Origin: a virus
Virus record (IMG/VR): IMGVR_UViG_3300023174_000078
Location: 32,001 to 96,000 of that record
Length of the DNA: 64,000 nucleotides
Direction: 5' to 3' (one strand)
Positions within the stretch are counted from its first letter, which is position 1, and each line of letters begins with the position of its first letter. A program made the translations under genes and the position numbers. Below are positions 30,479 through 46,425 of this stretch, piece after piece. Below the pieces are notes generated by a model. That model worked only from the letters and a program-made list of their open reading frames with translations. It did no database searches and was not told where the DNA came from.

Positions 30479-32982
30479 ATGAACTCACTGGTTAACTCTG
30501 TACCAGCTTTTAATGGTTGCTTTACGCATCAGATAAAAAGATTTGTATCCTACGGCGTGTTTACGCCTGTAATTCTAGCTTCATCCGCTGCTGTAACTGG
30601 CGATGTTTTAGGAGAGCTGTATAGCAAACTGTTTCAGCTCAGCCCTTTTTTCTCTGAATCACAATTGCAACTGAGACATGTTATTAAAACCAAACTGTAT
30701 GACGACACTGAATACGGGTGAACGTCGCGAATTTGCTGCGTATCACCTACTGTACAAGCGGTCTGTATTTAATACACAAGACGACGTGATTGACCTGTTT
30801 GATATTTTATCAAACTTCACGGATTGCGTGCATGGTGATGTATGGGATGTGATTTTAGTTAATCTACGAACGCCAATATATCAAGCGGCAGGTAGCCATA
30901 TAGCAAATTATGCGTCCGCAATCCTGAATGAGACAATATGAGAAGAAAAAAAGATTACTTAGGTGATTATGTCGCTGATAGTGTAAACGATATATGTTGG
31001 AGTTGTGTGATACACATTATCACGGATATCATTTTTATGGCGACATCTCGTCCTGTTTACAAGGAAATTTATGGATTTATAGATACACATGTTTCTGATT
31101 CTGTAGGCAATATAGTTCATATAAAAATAAATAATGAATGCGATTTATAAATCTGTTAACGCTACGTATAGCCGAAAAACATGAAAACACTTTCTGATAC
31201 TGTCTGGTCTCAAACTTGGTATTGTATTCACATTTCTATATGGACCTCGATAGGCCGCGCGACTAATGCTGATACGGCGGTTTCTACGCACGAATTTGTT
31301 TCGGACGCAATTTTTGAACCTGTAGCTAAAGCTACTGGCACGCGTTACGTCGATTCAACAATATATGAAATTGTTAAATCCTAAAAAACAAATGAGTACA
31401 CACTAAATGATGAATGATAAAACTCTTTATAACTCTATAACGACGCTAGTGTCTGTTTTTGCGCTCGATGGTTTAGAAGATCATGTTTTTAGCGTTACTC
31501 GCGGCTCCTGCGCAGCTAGGTCTGTGTGGATAACTGTTATGCATCAAGTCTTTGACATTACGCACAGGGCTACAGCCGATCCTAATTATGGTATTACCTC
31601 ACGTCTTGCCAAAGTATTAAATAAAAAAATAAATGAGTAATATTTACTACTCTATTTGGACATCTATTTGCGATAATGTCTGTGGTGGCGTGGAGCGCAA
31701 TGGGCTTGACACTTTATGGGATACAGCGCGCTATTCCGTAGAGGATACTGTTTGGTTTGCTATCAGCGCCAATATCTTCGGGATTATGCCCGACGCTGTA
31801 GAAAAAACTATTTGTAACCATCTTTATGCTAAAACTTGAAAAATCCGTTTCACACTTCGCGCGTATTATGGTTCAGCCCAATATAATTGACCCCGTTAAA
31901 CATAATGCGTGGCAGGCTATTAGTGAGCAAGATTGGGAAGACGTATGGCTAATTCCTGCCGAATCGATATATACCGCCGCACGTAATAACGTGAGTGAGC
32001 TGGTCAGGAGTTTTTTGTTACACACACACACAAACCTTATTAAAATGAGTACCGATAATGAATTAAGACGGGCTGTTAACGAGATTAGCGACGCGCTAGT
32101 TTGGAAAAATTTAAGGAGCGCAATATGGTCTCATATGGAAGCTGATAGATGGTGGAGTACCCGTTTTGCGCTGAGTGACAGCATGACGGCTAAAAATGTA
32201 TGTACCGCTAACTTCTTCGTTAATTCTTACATGAATCAACAAAAATATGGATAATGTTTTATACAGAACTATTTTTCACAATGTGTGGCGTCCTGTACAC
32301 CGCTGTGTGTTGTACCGTATACAAGATAGCACAGCAAACGCTTTAATAGGCGATGTGTTTGAATCTGGATGGGTTGCTATCAGAGATGCTGCTTACATAC
32401 CTGTGGAGGATATGCTTCATCCGTACGTTTCTTTAAAATTTAATTCAATATGCGTGTAGACAATTCACCACACCCGGCAGTCATTCGCTGTATTGACGAT
32501 AAACATAACGCTTCAAATTAGACACCGCCATCGCGGTCGTTTCCCTGCGGTGAAATCCAAATTCTGCACAACATGACAATTCACGATTCTAGCGATACCC
32601 AGGTATACTACGCGATCAATAAGTACATCTGGTTCGATATCCGGGCTGCTATAAAGGATTTTATTTGTTACGACGCGTATCGCTACGTTGAGAACGAAAT
32701 TTATGATAAAGCAGACAGTGTTACATACTATTCTGTATGCGAATATGTGGAGCTGAGCCTCAAAATTTATAAATGAATAACCCGACACTTTTTGTTTCAG
32801 TCTATAACCCTCCCGGATTAATTCCCCTAGTTGGGCAGTTGCACTTAAGGTGTGCGATGAACTATAGAGACGAAGTATGGACGGCTATGTCGAATAACGC
32901 CGCCCATATTAGCAAGCGTTTAGGCCATGCGTCTTATCATACTGATCGCAAGATAGCTGAGGATTTACACCAGTACACATAG
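30479..32982 (+). other. Tandem array of about 10 diverged 67-87 aa micro-genes (one 142-aa double unit), related to the SVxx-repeat family
   Basis: ORFs at 30479, 30699, 30938, 31181, 31407, 31633, 31826, 32247, 32573, 32773; V/I every 4th residue, frequent VW/IW; C-termini ILNETI, KINNECDL, KKINE. Confidence 0.65.
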
Positions 32983-33012: not shown

Positions 33013-33363
33013 ATGAGCACAAATAAAGAAATCAAAGTCACACCAAGAGTCTGGAAAGCTATGCGCTACGCTGGAGATGGCTATGACACATACGGTAAAC
33101 AAAGAGATGGTAAAAATTATTGCGATCTCGAGACCGCAGTGACTCTAGAGACTGAATTACAGGCAGCTACAAAGGAATTAAAACTTCTGCAAAAGCAGAA
33201 CGATAAACTACTAAAAGCGCTGCGGGCCTTTACGCGATTCGGCAGCAGTCCCGGAGCAGGTGGCGGCGGAACTTTAGATTTATACACGCAAGGACAACGT
33301 GTAACCGAAAAGAATGTTCGTGACATAGCAAGGAAAGCACTAAAAGCATATGGCCCTAAATGA
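33013..33363 (+). CDS. Hypothetical protein
   Basis: 116-aa ORF. Confidence 0.55.
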   Translation: MSTNKEIKVTPRVWKAMRYAGDGYDTYGKQRDGKNYCDLETAVTLETELQAATKELKLLQKQNDKLLKALRAFTRFGSSPGAGGGGTLDLYTQGQRVTEKNVRDIARKALKAYGPK

Positions 33364-33607
33364 AGAATTCATAAAGGTAGAAACAGCATATCACACACCT
33401 CCTGGAGGTCAGCAGGTTGGTCCAGTTTCCGCAGGGGTTAAAGTGACACATGAGTTCGGTGGTATATCTGTGACATGCGATTTAGGTAGGTCACAGAAAC
33501 AGAATAAAGATATGGCTTTAGGAGCTATTGAATACTTATTAGTAGAAGCAGGATACACAGACGCCGTGTTATTTAAAAAAGATGAACATAATTCAAAAAG
33601 CAGCTGA
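33350..33607 (+). CDS. Stand-alone release-factor GGQ (peptidyl-tRNA hydrolase) domain protein
   Basis: PGGQQVG..GVKVTH..GISVTC..RSQKQNKDMAL parallels RF GGQHVN..AVRITH.PTGIVV.CQ..RSQ.KNK..A. Confidence 0.75.
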   Translation: MALNEEFIKVETAYHTPPGGQQVGPVSAGVKVTHEFGGISVTCDLGRSQKQNKDMALGAIEYLLVEAGYTDAVLFKKDEHNSKSS

Positions 33608-34052
33608 CTACGCGTTATTGGCGCATAATGGTCAGAAACGTAAAAATGGTAAGCCGTACTTCACACATGTTGAAGCTGTAGCGAACCTTGTGAACGATAA
33701 CTGGTCCAGATTGATTCCGCCCACAGCGCAAGATAACTGGAACGATTATAAAGACCATGTGGTGGCTGCGGCATATCTACATGATGTAATCGAAGATTGC
33801 GGTGTGACTAAAGATATGCTTATTGCATGCAGCTTCTCTGTGATGACTGTCGAAATTGTCGAAGCATTATCCAAGAAGCCCGGCGAGAATTACTTTGATT
33901 TCATTATGCGCATTCACGATAGTGGTGCGTTCCGTCCAGGTATAGTTGCAGTTAAACTTTGCGATCTAGAACACAATATGAGTGACTTGGATAACGGTTC
34001 ACTCAAGGATAAATACAGGCTAGCGCATTATATACTTAATTATTTTAACTGA
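33582..34052 (+). CDS. HD-domain hydrolase, RelA/SpoT-HD (small alarmone hydrolase)-like
   Basis: AHNGQKRKNGKPYFTH, AAYLHDVIED, VKLCDLEHNM. Confidence 0.8.
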   Translation: MNIIQKAADYALLAHNGQKRKNGKPYFTHVEAVANLVNDNWSRLIPPTAQDNWNDYKDHVVAAAYLHDVIEDCGVTKDMLIACSFSVMTVEIVEALSKKPGENYFDFIMRIHDSGAFRPGIVAVKLCDLEHNMSDLDNGSLKDKYRLAHYILNYFN

Positions 34053-38428: not shown

Positions 38429-38693
38429 GGGTAAGTATATCAATCATACTCAAAATGGGCCGCTTCAGCAGAAACACAAAGCGGCAGAATTGAATAAGGC
38501 AGGTGCAGAACTTCTGTTAGACACGCCTACAACGTGGGAAGAAGGACTGATCTGCGTGGTGAGTAATGGTATATTCGAAGCGGCGGCGTATGTCCAGGAT
38601 GCCCGGGATCTCGAAGATTTCTCTGAGTTCGTGTGGGACACCAGGCCGCGTGTATGGCTCAAATGGGATAGGGCTAAAGAGTTCGCTAAATGA
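38427..38693 (+). CDS. Hypothetical protein
   Basis: 88 aa; ATGA-coupled to the next gene. Confidence 0.6.
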   Translation: MGKYINHTQNGPLQQKHKAAELNKAGAELLLDTPTTWEEGLICVVSNGIFEAAAYVQDARDLEDFSEFVWDTRPRVWLKWDRAKEFAK

Positions 38694-39265
38694 ACATCTT
38701 CGCAATTTACAGATGCCCGGTCACGTCGGCCCGGCATCTTGTAGATTCCCATGTCGTGAAAATGGTATTGGAATCTGCGCAGATGCTAGCTAATTGCTTT
38801 ACGCCAGAACAACTTGCTGGTGCTGACTGTCCCAGAACGAAGGCAGGCACAGTACGCAAATATTCATATTACAATCATCCATGTAGTAAATGGGTGCGCG
38901 TGTCGCAAGAGAATATGCGCTGGTTATGTCGACATGCGCTGGCTATGGACGTTGAAAGAATTCAACGCTCAACAATCAGAATACAAGAACAACGACAATT
39001 AAGAGACCGTGGCTTACCGTATAGTGAAGCGATAGCGAACAGCACACCTGTTCCGCATCACAGCATTTCTTTTATTAATTGGGTAGTCGCTAATTTTCCG
39101 CGCAGTCTAATACCTGAAGGACCTTTGACAGAATTTGCACAGGCTATGCCAGATGAATTCAAATGTGCAGATTCTGTTCAAGCCTACCGCAACCTTTATA
39201 CGATAGGTAAAAAACATTTACATATATGGACGCGCAACAAACCTGACTGGATTAACCTATGCTAG
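38690..39265 (+). CDS. Pyrimidine dimer DNA glycosylase / endonuclease V family-like protein
   Basis: MNIF..HVVKMVLESAQML..NHPCSKWVR..N..WL..FAQAMPD..AYRNLY. Confidence 0.75.
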   Translation: MNIFAIYRCPVTSARHLVDSHVVKMVLESAQMLANCFTPEQLAGADCPRTKAGTVRKYSYYNHPCSKWVRVSQENMRWLCRHALAMDVERIQRSTIRIQEQRQLRDRGLPYSEAIANSTPVPHHSISFINWVVANFPRSLIPEGPLTEFAQAMPDEFKCADSVQAYRNLYTIGKKHLHIWTRNKPDWINLC

Positions 39266-39304: not shown

Positions 39305-39517
39305 ATGAAACGATCACTTAATAATTCTGTCTGGCATTCTGTCCGTAATTCTGTCAATGAGTCTGTCCGTAATTCTGTCAGAAATTCTGCCCTGTATTCT
39401 GTCTGGGATTCTGTCTATAATTCTGTCTGGGATTCTGTCCGTAATTCTGTCAGTGGTTCTGTCTATAATTCTGTGTGGCATTCTGTCAGTAATAAAATAA
39501 ATGAAACGATCACTTAA
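39305..39517 (+). CDS. SVxx-repeat micro-protein 1
   Basis: MKRSLNN-(SVxx)n-KINETIT, 70 aa. Confidence 0.75.
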   Translation: MKRSLNNSVWHSVRNSVNESVRNSVRNSALYSVWDSVYNSVWDSVRNSVSGSVYNSVWHSVSNKINETIT

Positions 39518-39665
39518 TAATTCTGTCTGGCATTCTGTCCGTGATTCTGTCAGTGATTCTGTCTATAATTCTGTCTGGGATTCTGTCCGTAATTCTGTCA
39601 GTGGTTCTGTCTATAATTCTGTGTGGCATTCTGTCAGTAATAAAATAAATGAAACGATCACTTAA
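39501..39665 (+). CDS. SVxx-repeat micro-protein 2 (54 aa, not in ORF track)
   Basis: MKRSLNNSVWHSVRDSVSDSVYNSVWDSVRNSVSGSVYNSVWHSVSNKINETIT, translated by hand. Confidence 0.75.
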   Translation: MKRSLNNSVWHSVRDSVSDSVYNSVWDSVRNSVSGSVYNSVWHSVSNKINETIT

Positions 39666-39837
39666 TAATTCTGTCTGGCATTCTGTCCGTGATTCTGTCA
39701 GTGATTCTGTCTGGGATTCTGTCTATAATTCTGTCTGGAATTCTGTCAGTGGTTCTGTCAGGGATTCTGTCTATAATCCTGTCAATGAGTCTGTCAGAGA
39801 TTCTGTCAGTAATAAAATAAATGAAACAAGCACTTAA
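39649..39837 (+). CDS. SVxx-repeat micro-protein 3
   Basis: 62 aa, same architecture. Confidence 0.75.
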   Translation: MKRSLNNSVWHSVRDSVSDSVWDSVYNSVWNSVSGSVRDSVYNPVNESVRDSVSNKINETST

Positions 39838-40009
39838 TAATTCTGTCCATAGTTTTGTCAGTGATTCTGTCTTTAGTTCTGTCCGTAATTCTGTCAGAGA
39901 TTTTGTCAGTAATTCTGTCCGGTATTCTGTCAGTGATTCTGTCTGGGATTCTGTCTTTAATTCTGTCAATAATTCTGTCAGTAATAAAATAAATGAAACG
40001 ATCACTTAG
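39821..40009 (+). CDS. SVxx-repeat micro-protein 4
   Basis: 62 aa, same architecture. Confidence 0.75.
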   Translation: MKQALNNSVHSFVSDSVFSSVRNSVRDFVSNSVRYSVSDSVWDSVFNSVNNSVSNKINETIT

Positions 40010-40181
40010 TAGTTCTGTCCGTAGTTTTGTCAGTAATTCTGTCAGTAATTCTGTCAGTGGTTCTGTCTGGGATTCTGTCTGGCATTCTGTCCGGTATTCT
40101 GTCAGTGATTCTGTCTGGGATTCTGTCTTTAATTCTGTCAATGAGTCTGTCCGTAATAAAATAAATGAAACAATCACTTAA
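39993..40181 (+). CDS. SVxx-repeat micro-protein 5
   Basis: 62 aa, same architecture. Confidence 0.75.
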   Translation: MKRSLSSSVRSFVSNSVSNSVSGSVWDSVWHSVRYSVSDSVWDSVFNSVNESVRNKINETIT

Positions 40182-40365
40182 TAATTCTGTCAGTGGTTCT
40201 GTCTGGGATTCTGTCAGTAATTCTGTCAGTAATTCTGTCAATAATTCTGTCAGTGATTCTGTCAGTGGTTCTGTCTGGGATTCTGTCGGTGATTCTATCT
40301 GGGATTCTGTCTATGATTCTGTCCGTAATTCTGTCAGTAATAAAATAAATGAAACAATTACTTAA
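40165..40365 (+). CDS. SVxx-repeat micro-protein 6
   Basis: 66 aa, same architecture. Confidence 0.75.
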   Translation: MKQSLNNSVSGSVWDSVSNSVSNSVNNSVSDSVSGSVWDSVGDSIWDSVYDSVRNSVSNKINETIT

Positions 40366-40585
40366 TAATTCTGTCGATGATTCTGTCTGGGATTCTGTCA
40401 GTAATTCTGTCGACGATTCTGTCTGGGATTCTGTCTGGGATTCTGTCTTTAGTTCTGTCTGGAATTCTGTCTGGGATTCTGTCCGTAATTCTGTCAGTGG
40501 TTCTGTCTATAATTCTGTGTGGCATTCTGTCCGTGATTCTGTCAGTAATTCTGTCCGTAATAAAATAAATGAAACAATCACTTAA
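40349..40585 (+). CDS. SVxx-repeat micro-protein 7
   Basis: 78 aa, same architecture. Confidence 0.75.
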   Translation: MKQLLNNSVDDSVWDSVSNSVDDSVWDSVWDSVFSSVWNSVWDSVRNSVSGSVYNSVWHSVRDSVSNSVRNKINETIT

Positions 40586-40817
40586 TAATTCTGTCAGCAA
40601 TTCTGTCTGGAATTCTGTCCGTAATTCTGTCAGTGGTTCTGTCTATAATTCTATCAGTGATTCTGTCCGGTATCCTGTCAGTAATTCTATCAGTGATTCT
40701 GTCCGGTATCCTGTCAGTAATTCTGTCAATGATTCTGTCTGGTATTCTGTCTGGGATTCTGTCCGTAGTTTTGTCAGTAGTTTTGTCAGTAATAAAATAA
40801 ATGAAACAATCATTTAG
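40569..40817 (+). CDS. SVxx-repeat micro-protein 8
   Basis: 82 aa, same architecture. Confidence 0.75.
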   Translation: MKQSLNNSVSNSVWNSVRNSVSGSVYNSISDSVRYPVSNSISDSVRYPVSNSVNDSVWYSVWDSVRSFVSSFVSNKINETII

Positions 40818-41049
40818 TGATTCTGTCTGGGATTCTGTCAATAATTCCGTCCGTGATTCTGTCCGTAATTCTGTCCGTGGTTCTGCATATAATTATGTCG
40901 GTGATTCTGTCTGGCATTCTGTCTGGCATTCTGTCCGTGATTCTGTCCGTAGTTTTGTCTGGGATTCTGTCGGTGGTTTTGTCTGGGATCCTGTCAGTGA
41001 TTCTGTCAATGAGTCTGTCCGTAATAAAATAAATGAAACAATCACTTAA
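40801..41049 (+). CDS. SVxx-repeat micro-protein 9
   Basis: 82 aa, same architecture. Confidence 0.75.
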   Translation: MKQSFSDSVWDSVNNSVRDSVRNSVRGSAYNYVGDSVWHSVWHSVRDSVRSFVWDSVGGFVWDPVSDSVNESVRNKINETIT

Positions 41050-41293
41050 TAATTCTGTCAGTGGTTCTGTCTGGGATTCTGTCAGTAATTCTGTCAGTAA
41101 TTCTGTCAATAATTCTGTCAGTGATTCTGTCAGTGGTTCTGTCTGGGATTCTGTCTGTAATTCTGTCTGGGATTCTGTCTGGAATTTTGTCTATAATTCT
41201 GTCTGGAATTCTGTCAGTGGTTCTGTCAGGGATTCTGTCTGGCATTCTGTCTGGGCTTCTGTCAGTAATAAAATAAATGAAACAATCACTTAA
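41033..41293 (+). CDS. SVxx-repeat micro-protein 10
   Basis: 86 aa, same architecture. Confidence 0.75.
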   Translation: MKQSLNNSVSGSVWDSVSNSVSNSVNNSVSDSVSGSVWDSVCNSVWDSVWNFVYNSVWNSVSGSVRDSVWHSVWASVSNKINETIT

Positions 41294-41426
41294 TAATTCT
41301 GTCCATAGTTTTGTCAGAGATTCTGTCAGAGATTCTGTCTGGGATTCTGTCTGTCATTCTGTCTATAATTCTGTCCGTAATAAAATAAATGAAACTACAC
41401 GATTACAAATTAGAACCTCAAAATGA
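41277..41426 (+). CDS. SVxx-repeat micro-protein 11 (49 aa, not in ORF track)
   Basis: MKQSLNNSVHSFVRDSVRDSVWDSVCHSVYNSVRNKINETTRLQIRTSK; overlaps the start of 41389. Confidence 0.7.
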   Translation: MKQSLNNSVHSFVRDSVRDSVWDSVCHSVYNSVRNKINETTRLQIRTSK

Positions 41427-41817
41427 AACATTAGCTGTACTACGTAAACATGGTTTCAATTTGTCGCGCATGATTGCCTACAGCAAATCTACATACTTAT
41501 CAATGCATCCGGAGCATCAAGTAGTGTTCAATGCCAATATTTTTACTCCGCAAGGTAAAGCTTGGTGGGGTGACTTGGATCTAACGAAAGATTCAGAAAA
41601 TCTACAGCTTGCAGCTGCCGATATCGGTTCCACTTTATACGTGCTACGTGAATCGGATGGTCGCTTTGGCAATGAGCAGCGTACTGTGTCAGAATTAGAA
41701 AAATTAGCCGTCAAGAAATTTGAAGTTAAGTCAAAACAAAAAAAATCAATTCAAACATGTCTACAATCTTTAGCATCCAAGGTAACACAATTTTTCTCCG
41801 CGACCCGGAGGCGATGA
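41389..41817 (+). CDS. Hypothetical protein coupled to the array
   Basis: Starts inside a final copy of the array junction (AATAAAATAA-ATGAAAC). Confidence 0.7.
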   Translation: MKLHDYKLEPQNETLAVLRKHGFNLSRMIAYSKSTYLSMHPEHQVVFNANIFTPQGKAWWGDLDLTKDSENLQLAAADIGSTLYVLRESDGRFGNEQRTVSELEKLAVKKFEVKSKQKKSIQTCLQSLASKVTQFFSATRRR

Positions 41818-42857
41818 ATTTCCACGATAAGCTTCCACCGGAAGTTTACGCGATTAAAGAGCACCCTATCACTGAGGAGTTGTTTTTAGATAAGATTGAT
41901 TGTTTTAATATACCGCACAAGAGATACGGTAATAATGACAGGTACGCCCAACGTATCTTGAACAGCTTCAAGCTACGCAATCAAGCGACCGGTGTTCTCT
42001 TGTGTGGGGAGAAGGGGTCCGGTAAGTCGCTACTTGCCAAAACTCTAGCCAATATCGCGCAAGCAGAGGGGTTGCCAGTTATCGTGGTTAACACACCACG
42101 CACTGGTGACGCTTTCTTCCAGCTTATTCAGCGGATTGAGCAGCCCGCTATTATTCTCTTTGATGAGTTCGAGAAGGTGTACGACTCAGACAAACAGAAA
42201 GAAGTTCTGACGCTGCTTGACGGCATCTATCCGTCCAATAAATTGTATGTCTTCACGGTCAACGATAAGTGGAAGCTGGATGTGAACATGCGCAACCGCC
42301 CCGGACGTATTTTCTATTCCATTGACTACAAAGGCATCGAAGAAAAGTTTATTCGTGAGTACTGCGAAGACAATTTGAATGATAAGTCGCAGGTCGACCA
42401 TATCGTTCGTATCAACACACTGTTCAGTGCGTTTAATTTTGATATGCTGCAGGCTTTGGTTGAGGAAATGAATCGTTATAATGAAGATCCATTTGAGGCG
42501 ATTCAGTTGCTGAATATCAAACCCGAGTACGAAGATGCCACAACCTTCACTACGTTTATTTCCGTCGATGGTACGCCTGATTCGCATATCACATGTGACC
42601 GGGACTTTAATGGTAAGCCTTTGGGCGACCGTGTGAAAATCTATTACCATAAGTATAGGCGTCTGGATATTTCCAAGGAACACTGTGATAACGAAGCCGA
42701 CTGGCTGTCCGCTGAGTTTGTTCCAACGGATTTGGTTTCCGTCAGTAAGGACGGTAAAACTTTCTTGTTTAAGAATAGCAAAGGCGAATCTGTTACGCTG
42801 CAAGCTAAAAAGAGTGATACCGCATTCGATTACCGCACTTTCGCTTACGCGAGCTAG
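41757..42857 (+). CDS. AAA+ ATPase
   Basis: Walker A GEKGSGKS, Walker B ILFDEFEK, NRPGRI. Confidence 0.9.
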   Translation: MSTIFSIQGNTIFLRDPEAMNFHDKLPPEVYAIKEHPITEELFLDKIDCFNIPHKRYGNNDRYAQRILNSFKLRNQATGVLLCGEKGSGKSLLAKTLANIAQAEGLPVIVVNTPRTGDAFFQLIQRIEQPAIILFDEFEKVYDSDKQKEVLTLLDGIYPSNKLYVFTVNDKWKLDVNMRNRPGRIFYSIDYKGIEEKFIREYCEDNLNDKSQVDHIVRINTLFSAFNFDMLQALVEEMNRYNEDPFEAIQLLNIKPEYEDATTFTTFISVDGTPDSHITCDRDFNGKPLGDRVKIYYHKYRRLDISKEHCDNEADWLSAEFVPTDLVSVSKDGKTFLFKNSKGESVTLQAKKSDTAFDYRTFAYAS

Positions 42858-42904
42858 TGTGCATTAAAAACAAATCAAACAAATTAAACAAAAGTCATAC
42901 AATC

Positions 42905-43942
42905 ATGGACGCGAAACAGCAAAAAGAAAAGATCTCCGAACTCACTCCTGAGCAAAAGGCTAAGATGCCAGAATATGTTAAGAAGTGGATTGCTATCGGC
43001 AACGACACTTCCCGGTTGAATTATGATCGTACTGTCGACATCATTCATGCGGTTCAGAAGCACATCCTGAAGAAAGAACCTACTCCGGTTTTGATCTTTG
43101 ATAACCCCATGGAGGCCTGGGTAGCGTGTAACTATGCCGCACACGGTCACAAGGTTAATGAACTCAAGAACTGTGTGGAGGAGTTCTTCAGTGGAAAGAA
43201 ACCCAAGTGGAAACTTGGTCAGTATGTTTCACCCTATCTCAATGGGTCATTCGCAGCACCAACGTTCGCCTTCTACGACTTTTTCAAGTTCGAGTTGGGC
43301 GTTTCGTTTGACACTACCGGTACGCCAGTCGCAGCTGCGCAAGACAACAGCGCGCTTAGCGTGGATGAACTGTATGAGATCTGGAAGAGCACCACAGAGC
43401 TTGGACTGATCTATCCAATTCACGACGTCCAAGGTGCAGCACAGGATATGTGTATCGTGTCTCAAAAACCATCGCGGGTAAAAGTTAATGAAGCCGGTGT
43501 CGTACACTGCGATGGCGCTGTTGCCATTGAGTACGAGGGGCATGGCGATATCAAGATTTATGCGCTCAATGGTGTGACTGTTCCTGATTGGTTGGCTTTG
43601 ACGCCAGCCCAGAACATCCCCGTCGAGCGGATACACGAAATTAAAAATGCAGACATTAAAGCCGAGTTTGTTCGCAAGATCGGTGTTGAGCGTTTGCTTG
43701 ACATGGGAAGCAAAGTGGACTCTTATGAGGCTCATTCTGATGAGTGGTGGCACAAGTCGCAATACGAGCTTTGGGATATGCACAACCTGTTTCCTAATGT
43801 TGAGTACGCCCCACACCTCAAGATGCTGAATCAGACGACCAAAATCTGGCACGTTGAGGCTGTATCTCCTAGTTGCAGAACAATCGAAGATGCGTTGAAA
43901 GACCGGTATGGTCGCAATGTTGACATCATTGAAATCGCCTAA
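42905..43942 (+). CDS. DUF6745-like protein lacking an internal tetrapeptide-repeat tract
   Basis: LTPEQ..YVKKWIAIG, AFYDFF, IVSQKP..VHCDGAVAIEY..IYALNGVTVP..IKNADIKAEFVRKIGVER; family recognised from memory. Confidence 0.75.
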   Translation: MDAKQQKEKISELTPEQKAKMPEYVKKWIAIGNDTSRLNYDRTVDIIHAVQKHILKKEPTPVLIFDNPMEAWVACNYAAHGHKVNELKNCVEEFFSGKKPKWKLGQYVSPYLNGSFAAPTFAFYDFFKFELGVSFDTTGTPVAAAQDNSALSVDELYEIWKSTTELGLIYPIHDVQGAAQDMCIVSQKPSRVKVNEAGVVHCDGAVAIEYEGHGDIKIYALNGVTVPDWLALTPAQNIPVERIHEIKNADIKAEFVRKIGVERLLDMGSKVDSYEAHSDEWWHKSQYELWDMHNLFPNVEYAPHLKMLNQTTKIWHVEAVSPSCRTIEDALKDRYGRNVDIIEIA

Positions 43943-43952
43943 ATAAATTACG

Positions 43953-43981
43953 GGGCAATAAATAAACCTATTGCCCTATTT
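43953..43981 (+). terminator. Hairpin / weak terminator
   Basis: GGGCAATA/TATTGCCC followed by TATTT. Confidence 0.45.
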
Positions 43982-44022
43982 AAAAAAACAAAGCACCGTA
44001 ACACAAATCAGACGCTAACAAC

Positions 44023-44391
44023 ATGTCAAAATCCAAAGCAACCAAGTCCAAAGTCAATTCCAACGCCGCGCGCGCAATCCTTCACGGCGAGTGCGGTATC
44101 GTACAATCCCCCATCCCCGAGGATGCCACCGCCGTCAAGATCAAGGACAACTGCTTGATCCTGGCCGACTCCGAAACCACGGGTAACCACCACGTTCTCG
44201 ACGTCTTGCCGGGCGTTGAAGTCCTGGAGAAGGAAGGGAAGCGTTTTATGCGCAATTCCGTCCCCGCCCAGGTCCGCTGCTTACACACGGACCGGCACGA
44301 TGCCCTCGTCGTACCCCCCGGTGAATGGGAGTTCATCATCGCTCAGGAGTTCGACTACTTCGAAATGAGCAAGCGCAATGTCCGCGACTAA
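44023..44391 (+). CDS. Small His-motif protein of the type usually adjacent to DUF6745 genes
   Basis: HGE..LADSETTGNHH..H..HDALVVPPGEW..QEFD..RNVRD; strong C/G-ending codon bias. Confidence 0.7.
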   Translation: MSKSKATKSKVNSNAARAILHGECGIVQSPIPEDATAVKIKDNCLILADSETTGNHHVLDVLPGVEVLEKEGKRFMRNSVPAQVRCLHTDRHDALVVPPGEWEFIIAQEFDYFEMSKRNVRD

Positions 44392-46156: not shown

Positions 46157-46231
46157 GCCTTCGTAGCTCAGTGGTAGAGCGGCTACTTTGTAAGTAGCGG
46201 GTCGGGGGTTCGAATCCCTCCGCAGGCTCCA
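46157..46231 (+). tRNA. tRNA-Thr(TGT)
   Basis: GCTAC-TTTGTAA-GTAGC arm; CCA. Confidence 0.9.
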
Positions 46232-46232
46232 T

Positions 46233-46307
46233 GCTCCGGTAGCTCAATGGTAGAGCAGTACCCTTTTAAGGTATTTGTTGCAGGTTCGAGCCCTTCCCGG
46301 AGTACCA
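46233..46307 (+). tRNA. tRNA-Lys(TTT)
   Basis: GTACC-CTTTTAA-GGTAT arm; CCA; one mismatch in the T stem. Confidence 0.85.
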
Positions 46308-46350
46308 TTTTTCATTGGCGTATCGCCAAGAACAAAGTAGAGTAACATAT

Positions 46351-46425
46351 TCCCGGGTAGCTCAGCGGTAGAGCGAACGGCTGTTAACCGTTAAGTCGTA
46401 GGTTCAAGCCCTACCCTGGGAGCCA
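46351..46425 (+). tRNA. tRNA-Asn(GTT)
   Basis: AACGG-CTGTTAA-CCGTT arm; CCA. Confidence 0.95.

Follow-up and report, generated by a model that had tools for sequence, protein, structure and literature searches.

Free-standing tetrapeptide-repeat micro-genes beside a repeat-less DUF6745 protein in a freshwater virus record: a candidate split form of a phage accessory module

The window analysed here is a 64,000-nucleotide (nt) stretch of viral DNA, bases 32001–96000 of the 121,276-bp virus record IMGVR_UViG_3300023174_000078 (CheckV completeness ~67%), and the DNA sequencing runs that contain most of it are labelled as lake or fresh water. Its plus strand carries an array of 11 tetrapeptide-repeat micro-genes (39305–41426; delimited by open reading frame (ORF) calls, the sequence itself, unit statistics and a hidden Markov model (HMM) of the cassettes), followed by ORF 41389, an AAA ATPase gene, a gene for a DUF6745-like protein that lacks repeats (the “core”, 42905–43942, 345 amino acids (aa); the longer ORF starts at 42857, and the start at 42905 was judged from homologues) and a gene for a small His-motif protein (the “partner”, 44023–44391, 122 aa). 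The upstream neighbour of the array is a pyrimidine-dimer-glycosylase-like gene (phrog_624, 38690–39265). A sequence-only reading of the window had described 11 separate, co-oriented repeat genes upstream of the core, and the ORF coordinates and 17-nt junctions given below agree with that description.

The 11 micro-ORFs are 49–86 aa long, and each consists of a 7-residue N-terminal cap (N-cap) M-K-R/Q-S-L-N-N, 7–18 tetrapeptides and a C-terminal cap (C-cap) K-I-N-E-T-I-T, as follows: cassette 1 (39305–39517) has 70 aa and 14 S-V-x-x units, cassette 2 (39501–39665) 54 aa and 10 units, cassettes 3 (39649–39837), 4 (39821–40009) and 5 (39993–40181; the copy modelled in a complex below) 62 aa and 12 units each, cassette 6 (40165–40365) 66 aa and 13 units, cassette 7 (40349–40585) 78 aa and 16 units, cassettes 8 (40569–40817) and 9 (40801–41049) 82 aa and 17 units each, cassette 10 (41033–41293; our database-search query) 86 aa and 18 units, and cassette 11 (41277–41426) 49 aa and 7 units, with an altered C-cap and an end 38 nt beyond the ATG of ORF 41389. 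All ten internal junctions are 17-nt ATG...TAA overlaps in which the next ATG lies before the previous stop codon, and the frame therefore moves by +1 at each of them. Tandem Repeats Finder reports a 12-nt period over 39322–41269 (159 copies, score 770) and a 172-nt super-period in the array (score 1066). Reading of the chain as a single protein by frameshifting was considered and rejected, as a TAA immediately precedes each ATG in the +1 frame and there is no obvious slippery site; a pentapeptide-repeat or other known repeat family was also rejected, the cassettes having no Pfam matches. The sequence CTGTCA-N16-TAAAAT, which recurs at the junctions, is not above chance there, and promoter-like sites (12, against 15.0 ± 3.6 in shuffled sequences) give no signal.

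The repeat bodies are exact multiples of four residues in 11 of 11 cassettes, giving 148 in-frame units in total that contain no stop codon (4.9 expected at the third codon from base frequencies, P ~0.007). Unit position 1 is Ser in 134 of the 148 (codon TCT in 133) and position 2 is Val in 143 (codon GTC in 140), while position 3 may be S, W, R, Y, N or others and position 4 N, D, G, H, S, Y or others. The Ser codon, the Val codon and the third codon positions are nearly fixed across units, and nearly all variation falls at the first two bases of codons 3 and 4. The set of variable residue pairs is restricted: 28 distinct pairs are present against 39.8 expected in shuffles, and the mutual information between positions 3 and 4 is 0.77 against 0.27, a value reached by none of 2000 shuffles; simple copying of 12-nt modules may account for this. 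When contigs of four DNA runs were compared with the array region, short-read contigs from two independent lake runs were found to end at 39331 and resume at 41288, the edges of the array, with only ~100-nt unitigs at 1–3.5 times the depth of the flanks in between. Because short-read contigs stop at both edges, the exact cassette count and order come from this one assembly. Repeat position 4 is most often Asn (56 of 148 units), and Asn, Lys and Thr abound in the C-cap; genes for tRNA-Thr(TGT), tRNA-Lys(TTT) and tRNA-Asn(GTT) lie at 46157–46425, 4.7 kb 3′ of the array, a match that could be chance in an AT-rich phage.

Are such small overlapping ORFs genes? A scan of viral contigs with the core as a single sequence gave no matches and an alignment was required; with an alignment of 32 core homologues, 49 related viral loci were fetched (L001 being the nearest relative of the window). 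Many of the 49 contain similarly built small ORFs in chains of 2 to 14 or more, with an N-cap, a hydrophobic residue at every fourth position, a C-cap and the next ATG at or inside the previous stop codon, and with DNA and caps that differ from phage to phage. The first repeat residue varies among S, Q, N, E/K and A: S-V-x-x arrays are found in L001, L003, L012–L014, L018 and L022, Q-V-x-x arrays in L023–L025 and L027, N/D-V-x-x arrays in L005 and L008, an E/K-V-x-x array in L017 and Q-L-x-x arrays in L033 and L034. Phages also differ in the codon used for the hydrophobic residue (GTC in the window, GTT in L001, GTG in L003, GTA in L017 and TTA in L033), and the array of L008 mixes six synonymous or near-synonymous codons (GTC 67, ATC 28, GTT 27, GTA 24, ATT 16 and GTG 10). 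On these comparative grounds the micro-ORFs are real coding genes. The alternative that the repeat acts at the level of DNA or RNA, as a binding, recombination or spacer array whose ORFs are by-products of a stop-free 12-nt unit, could draw on the several frames and both strands that are open across the units and on the near invariance of the Ser codons, Val codons and third positions within the array. Among phages with differing DNA, however, only the x-hydrophobic-x-x frame is kept, and the remaining open frames read differently in each; caps, starts and stops are in register in 11 of 11 units; diverged paralogues keep the peptide pattern without a DNA repeat (below); and thousands of proteins include this peptide in frame. 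We regard this alternative as close to refuted.

The diverged paralogues form a second mini-gene cluster on the plus strand at 30479–32982, with ~10 mostly overlapping mini-ORFs of 67–142 aa. Searched against the 451 ORFs of the genome, the cassette HMM finds the 11 array ORFs at expectation (E) values of 1e-38 to 1e-23, three ORFs of the second cluster at 30938–31150 (1e-6), 31633–31839 (8e-6) and 32247–32459 (8e-5), and, more weakly, two others there at 31826–32254 (1e-3) and 31181–31384 (2e-3); none of the 451 ORFs outside the array and this cluster is matched. The second cluster retains the period-4 V/I/L pattern and cap-like ends without any DNA-level repeat, and its copies, which have diverged, are older than those of the 11-copy array. 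A search for short relatives with a cassette returned 27 proteins among 259 candidates, and the window’s own cassettes were not among them; this count says little about the spread of free-standing copies, because gene callers seem to miss such ORFs.

The core is a member of the DUF6745 family, judged from its homologues and its predicted fold, despite a Pfam score below the cut-off. Where the sequence-only reading had called for an HMM match to DUF6745, the core reaches only 19.3 bits against PF20530 over residues 196–284 (gathering cut-off 27, E 7.4e-4), and a PF20530 family search of the window’s own record gave no match, the control genomes for that search being silent too. Its match to phrog_31813 has an E value of 2e-5. 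Homologues of the core number 264, and 82 of the 120 listed (43–100% identity) carry a precomputed PF20530 match; the core also aligns end to end with L048, a tract-bearing protein whose PF20530 score is 85 bits. The AlphaFold2 model of the core has a predicted local distance difference test (pLDDT) score of 89.3, and, compared with predicted viral structures, it matches a DUF6745 protein of Microcystis phage LMM01 best (E 4.9e-15, probability 1.00, template modelling scores 0.50/0.46), with another DUF6745 protein at rank 4; predicted structures stand on both sides of this comparison. As direct queries of an annotated phage collection, the window DNA and the core protein gave no matches, a sequence profile of the core against the PDB returned chance-level rows only, and a full-text literature search found no paper mentioning DUF6745.

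DUF6745 proteins commonly carry an (S/Q/A)-V-x-x tract between an N-terminal LTxEQ..W..IG region and the (A/S)FYDFF helix, as the sequence-only reading had stated for many members of the family. The tract is inserted between a helix that ends at about residue 80 of the window core and the G-S-F..A-F-Y-D-F-F helix that begins at about residue 111, and alignment with relatives upholds the earlier statement that this interval (~80–111) is non-repetitive in the window core. The internal tracts of distant relatives among the viral loci have 25 units in L029, 27 in L037, 11 in L039, 29 in L040, 6 in L042, 20 in L047, 32 in L048 and 34 in L049. With cassette 10 as the query, 739 longer proteins match at an E value of 1e-3 or better, and the 120 of these long matches that were listed include 78 with PF20530, two with PF24703, one with PF04448 and 39 with none; some of these 39 are visibly diverged DUF6745 proteins, and others have a second scaffold of ~270–300 aa. 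Members of this second scaffold (P0184, P0189, P0208, P0210, P0233 and P0149; ~230–300 aa) have an S-V-x-x tract before a conserved C-terminal domain, and one member comes from a Thermoplasmata archaeon. A profile of the fused form (core with internal tract) matches 15,511 cluster representatives at an E value of 1e-3 or better, 10,396 at 1e-10 and 4,613 at 1e-30, where the repeat tract itself may inflate the counts at the weaker thresholds. Six or more consecutive units are present in 132 of 144 newly returned best matches of this profile and in none of the window core’s 120 nearest relatives, so the window core belongs to a clade without repeats within a family that mostly bears the tract. 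From these sequence comparisons DUF6745 is a very large family that typically carries the tract.

The tract also changes fast. In one Marinacidobacterales genome, eight prophage-like copies of the partner and fused core (L051–L057 and L059) have near-identical flanks and differ in tract length and in the variable residues; the copies are dispersed and adjoin HNH and DNA methyltransferase genes, and L059 looks disrupted, with its core in two ORFs. Between the window and L001, the flanking proteins are 51–79% identical and the cassette caps are entirely different.

Are free-standing cassettes and internal tracts alternatives to one another? To compare them we counted 36 of the 49 viral loci, after removal of six near-duplicates (L007, L010, L019, L020, L021 and L028) and seven truncated matches (L026, L030, L031, L041, L043, L045 and L046); near-duplicates such as L015/L016 may remain among the 36. 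Cassette-like ORFs were counted on the strand of the core within the DNA fetched. The raw script tally was 10 fused loci (one with cassettes) and 26 repeat-less loci (15 with two or more cassettes and two with one), and L024, whose ORF call ran upstream into the partner gene, was moved by hand to the repeat-less group. The result is that the nine fused loci all have no cassette, while the 27 repeat-less loci comprise 16 with two or more cassettes, two with one and nine with none (arrays in 16/27 versus 0/9, Fisher P 0.002), which bears out the association between repeat-less DUF6745 genes and stand-alone arrays that the sequence-only reading had proposed as a check. The same cassette filter, applied to the window’s 121-kb genome, finds nothing beyond its two clusters. 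By this distribution the cis and trans forms appear to exclude each other.

A tree of 69 rows (the window, every sixth of P0002–P0120, 19 loci and every fifth of the fused-profile matches), made by a quick maximum-likelihood method from the C-terminal 215 residues, is rooted at the midpoint and gives no direction of change. It requires at least 4 changes of the fused/repeat-less label, against ~23 for shuffled labels (a count this low was reached in 0 of 500 shuffles). A well-supported group of 33 rows takes in most repeat-less rows together with four fused rows, among them L029 with its Q-V tract. The two states are thus clustered, yet have interconverted more than once.

The conserved module is, from gene neighbourhoods, the DUF6745 core together with the small His-motif partner. 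A partner homologue adjoins the core in 40 of 49 loci (tblastn), usually directly downstream and sometimes directly upstream, a figure that matches the habit, stated in the sequence-only reading, of many DUF6745 genes to lie beside this partner gene. When ORFs within 5 kb of the core were clustered in 44 neighbourhoods, the core family (into which the cassettes were merged through the tract) was present in 44 loci and the partner in 39, and no cluster other than core, partner and shadow ORFs was present in more than 6 of the 44; clusters in 24 and 14 loci are apparent opposite-strand shadow ORFs over core and partner, judged from the window members and one example each. Residues A48, E51, T53, G54, H57, H92, G100, E103, E109, D111, V120 and D122 of the partner are invariant. 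It has no Pfam, PDB or PADLOC match, Pfam searches with 19 partner homologues gave nothing consistent, its sequence profile against the PDB returned only chance-level rows, and in the ESM Atlas only unnamed viral clusters were matched. In the fused cores L038, L039, L042 and L048, a C-terminal extension of ~35 residues resembles the N-terminal strand of the partner of other genomes, and the partner gene beside these extended cores is shorter; this looks like a partial fusion, or partial domain transfer, between core and partner, and so hints that the two touch.

The invariant His, Glu and Asp of the partner could bind metal, and the core also keeps invariant His, Asn, Asp and Glu residues; together with the many tandem copies, fixed caps and variable middles of the cassettes, these features bring to mind multi-copy precursor libraries of ribosomally synthesized and post-translationally modified peptides (RiPPs), in which the cassettes would be precursor peptides modified by the partner and/or the core. 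We consider this very unlikely: the tract is mostly an internal segment of a ~400-aa protein and not a leader-core peptide, searches of core, partner and neighbours matched no known RiPP enzyme family, and the phages share no obvious residue for modification, since repeat position 1 can be S, Q, N, E, K or A depending on the phage.

A complex was predicted from the core (32-row alignment) and cassette 5 (11-row alignment). The interface score (ipSAE, the interaction prediction score from aligned errors) was 0.63, 0.82 and 0.80 in three runs (median 0.80), and 0.00, 0.01 and 0.00 in three controls; at least 79% of contacts are common to the runs, and the cassette chain has a pLDDT of at least 74. 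In calibration, 58 of 80 solved complexes and 2 of 110 mismatched pairs reach the ipSAE mark, counts that apply here only roughly, since our own alignments were used. The score is unlikely to stem from memorization by the predictor, since there is no solved complex of a similar kind. The contacts of lowest error join cassette residues 33, 37, 41 and 45, all of them Val (numbered from the translation), to core residues 21–32 and 116–127; the core interface also includes residues 68–79 and 104–113 (contacts overall at 68–79, 104–127 and helix 18–33), so that the core segments in contact are the N-terminal helix and both flanks of the tract insertion point. On the cassette, 12 of 12 Val positions, 10 of 12 first positions, 9 of 12 third positions and 5 of 12 fourth positions are in the interface. 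The model supports docking of the cassette in trans onto the repeat-less core, though it stops short of demonstrating it, and it goes in the direction of the earlier idea of a split-off module acting in trans, the best control having reached only 0.01.

On balance, then, we think it probable that the locus is a split form of a very large phage and prophage accessory module: a scaffold that takes exchangeable variable helices, with phage–host conflict as our best guess for its use. Most family members have a core with an internal, fast-changing tract, each unit of which is a polar residue, Val/Leu/Ile and two variable residues; in the clade of the window the core would have lost the tract, which is encoded instead as tandem micro-genes, 11 of them young and ~5–10 older and diverged. 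Each micro-protein would fold as a helix whose invariant Val/Ser face docks on the core on both sides of the point at which fused relatives carry their tract. The two variable positions would largely be left free, so that one core could be loaded with many alternative surfaces. The most likely use would be recognition of variable host or rival-phage proteins, in counter-defence or exclusion. This conflict role is proposed by analogy with Tweety gp54 (below), because the core has neither a PDB fold match nor a match to a defence or anti-defence family; the biological target is likewise a guess.

The mini-proteins might instead act without the phage’s own core, as decoys or competitors that fill the tract-binding groove, or take up the targets, of DUF6745 proteins in resident prophages or rival phages, a possibility also raised in the sequence-only reading. 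Tract-bearing DUF6745 proteins do occur in prophage-like elements (the eight Marinacidobacterales copies, and gp38 of the Mycobacterium abscessus prophage prophiGD102-1), and a lytic phage would therefore meet them; the tract is also borne on other scaffolds (42 of the 120 listed long matches lack PF20530, and the two with PF24703 are among them), so it can act in other contexts. Such decoys seem unlikely to us, as the arrays are tightly linked to the phage’s own repeat-less core, lying even between core and partner in L003 and L012, no array stands beside a fused core (0 of 9), and the model docks the cassette onto the phage’s own core.

Several observations weigh against the split-scaffold interpretation. 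The Pfam score of the core is below the cut-off (above), and comparison of its model with solved structures gave no fold match: the best Foldseek E value is 0.36, and the best Z score in a wide VIA-align search is 4.0 (root-mean-square deviation 3.6, 65 residues), which is background. A PADLOC defence search with the core found no match. Nine of the 27 repeat-less loci have no cassette in the fetched flanks, and the contrast between cis and trans forms is confounded by relatedness, fused and split loci belonging largely to different clades. Docking has a model as its evidence, and in that model 48 of the 62 cassette residues touch the core, which leaves less free surface than pure display would. 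In the AlphaFold2 model of a fused relative the tract is called helical at a pLDDT of only 29–37, so the fold of the fused tract is weakly modelled. Microcystis phage Ma-LMM01 has no tetrapeptide cassettes in the 50 kb examined of its 162-kb genome, although it has a repeat-less core. Finally, no RNA run was found to contain the stretch.

Known systems can be compared with the locus as follows. In M. abscessus prophiGD102-1, gp38 is a fused DUF6745 protein and gp37 its partner, the same core family and fold with the same adjacent His-motif gene; the tract of such fused proteins resembles the cassettes in having a polar residue, a hydrophobic residue and two variable residues rich in W/R/G/Y and D/N/A/S, but it is internal there, whereas the window has a core without a tract and separate micro-genes instead. 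The only studied protein of comparable architecture is gp54 of mycobacteriophage Tweety; a narrow literature search on hypervariable phage tetrapeptide repeats found no paper, and the sole relevant work in a broader one was on Tweety. Tweety gp54, with Che8 gp57 and PMC gp51, is described (PMC2884959) as having a central run of tetrapeptides in which the first two residues are fixed and the last two vary, with a 12-bp unit, fixed third-codon positions and a copy number that differs between related phages. A second report (PMC9262239) states that changes in gp54 repeat number let Tweety escape the gp29/gp30 defence of Phrann. The window array shares the codon-position pattern of variation described for gp54 (PMC2884959), but the gp54 repeat is Ala-Ala-x-x, its tract is internal rather than split, and by Pfam no partner homologue adjoins it. 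Alignment of gp54 with DUF6745 by hhalign gave a probability of 0.1% (E 0.52), and gp54 has no Pfam (PF20530) match; gp54 is an analogy, and not a member of the family, because it is not homologous to DUF6745. Two ORFs overlap at 33350–34052 in the window, one of 85 aa with a GGQ motif and one of 156 aa with an HD-like motif; this may bear on the array, because the defence countered by Tweety gp54 is said to resemble a (p)ppGpp synthetase.

Variation is likewise focused on a few codon positions of a binding-type segment in diversity-generating retroelements and other hypervariable phage loci. The reverse transcriptase family PF00078 has 0 matches in the 121,276-bp record (~67% complete), and was found in 3 of 14 control genomes. 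Unlike retroelement variation, the changes in the window are not confined to one template base, and its diversity comes from paralogous genes and gain or loss of units rather than from mutagenic retrohoming.

Going further, and only tentatively, one may picture a two-part binder in which scaffold and partner accept a genome-encoded, fast-turnover library of short helical inserts, and in which lineages switch repeatedly between a fused form with one specificity and a split form with many. The variable residue pair, repeated at each helical turn, would then set target specificity, and the phage would inherit a whole set of surfaces with which to recognize variable proteins of host defence or of rival phages. 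The split arrays show that the hypervariable tract of DUF6745 is a separable unit, multiplied by phages into gene libraries. If docking holds, this would be a new viral way to diversify a recognition surface, with many small exchangeable subunits on one scaffold, and such a scaffold-plus-insert route would differ from the single-gene mutagenesis of diversity-generating retroelements and from cassette recombination; it would also offer a ready-made minimal scaffold-plus-helix binder design. Cultured carriers of the family are the M. abscessus prophage prophiGD102-1 (gp37/gp38) and Microcystis phage Ma-LMM01 (ORF174/175). In the latter, a cultured phage, ORF174 and ORF175, the pair that includes the best structural match of the window core, form a repeat-less core with the partner directly upstream. 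It also has ~21 small overlapping paralogous genes, ORF137–157 (L063:24643–29288), with fixed ends and a variable middle that belong to another sequence family, and these may be another kind of mini-gene library; they lie on the same strand as the repeat-less DUF6745 pair, ~13 kb away, and are not tetrapeptide repeats, with a period-4 score of 0.5 or less.

Between the array and the core lie two genes that are probably lineage-specific neighbours outside the system. ORF 41389 (41389–41817, plus strand, 142 aa) has no family match, and its ATG is supplied by a twelfth copy of the junction. The AAA ATPase (41757–42857, plus strand, 366 aa) scores 39.2 bits against PF00004 (cut-off 21.2) and matches phrog_2376 at 3e-89, with weaker matches to clamp-loader and DnaC-like families; a GxxGxGKS-type P-loop (Walker A) and a hydrophobic-DE motif (Walker B) are visible in its translation. 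The statement of the sequence-only reading that the array runs straight into 41389, which reuses the junction as its start, holds for the window and fails as a general feature: in L001 ~1.7 kb of unrelated genes separate the array from the 41389 homologue, whose N-terminus differs, and the use of the junction as a start is thus a local accident. Its description of an ATPase that overlaps 41389, with core and His-motif gene following in the same orientation, is correct (61-nt overlap, plus strand). This overlap is due to a C-terminal extension of ORF 41389 of ~30 aa (41757–41817), which is absent from the L001 homologue.

That reading had also made the ATPase a part of the system and its possible remodeller, a claim that the comparison of loci does not support. 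Were array, ORF 41389 and ATPase a single machine, with the ATPase loading cassettes onto the core or exchanging them there, the co-orientation and tight packing of the genes, the overlap just described and the same gene order in L001 would all suit it. Against such a machine, the ATPase and 41389 have homologues in 1 of 49 loci only (L001; tblastn, E 1e-4), and are for that reason neighbours and not parts; the 5-kb clustering likewise found no third widespread family, unrelated genes part the array from the ATPase block in L001, and the clamp-loader and helicase-loader character of the secondary ATPase matches suits the surrounding replication and repair genes. We therefore judge a common machine to be very unlikely. 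In the cases examined, the context of the module is one of early, replication and repair genes: in the window it stands beside the glycosylase-like gene and the ATPase with clamp-loader-like secondary matches, in Ma-LMM01 its neighbours are genes for DNA polymerase, exonuclease, UDG and a holB-like ATPase, and it follows a RepA-like initiator in prophiGD102-1 and a ParB-like ORF (a label read from the translation) in L048.

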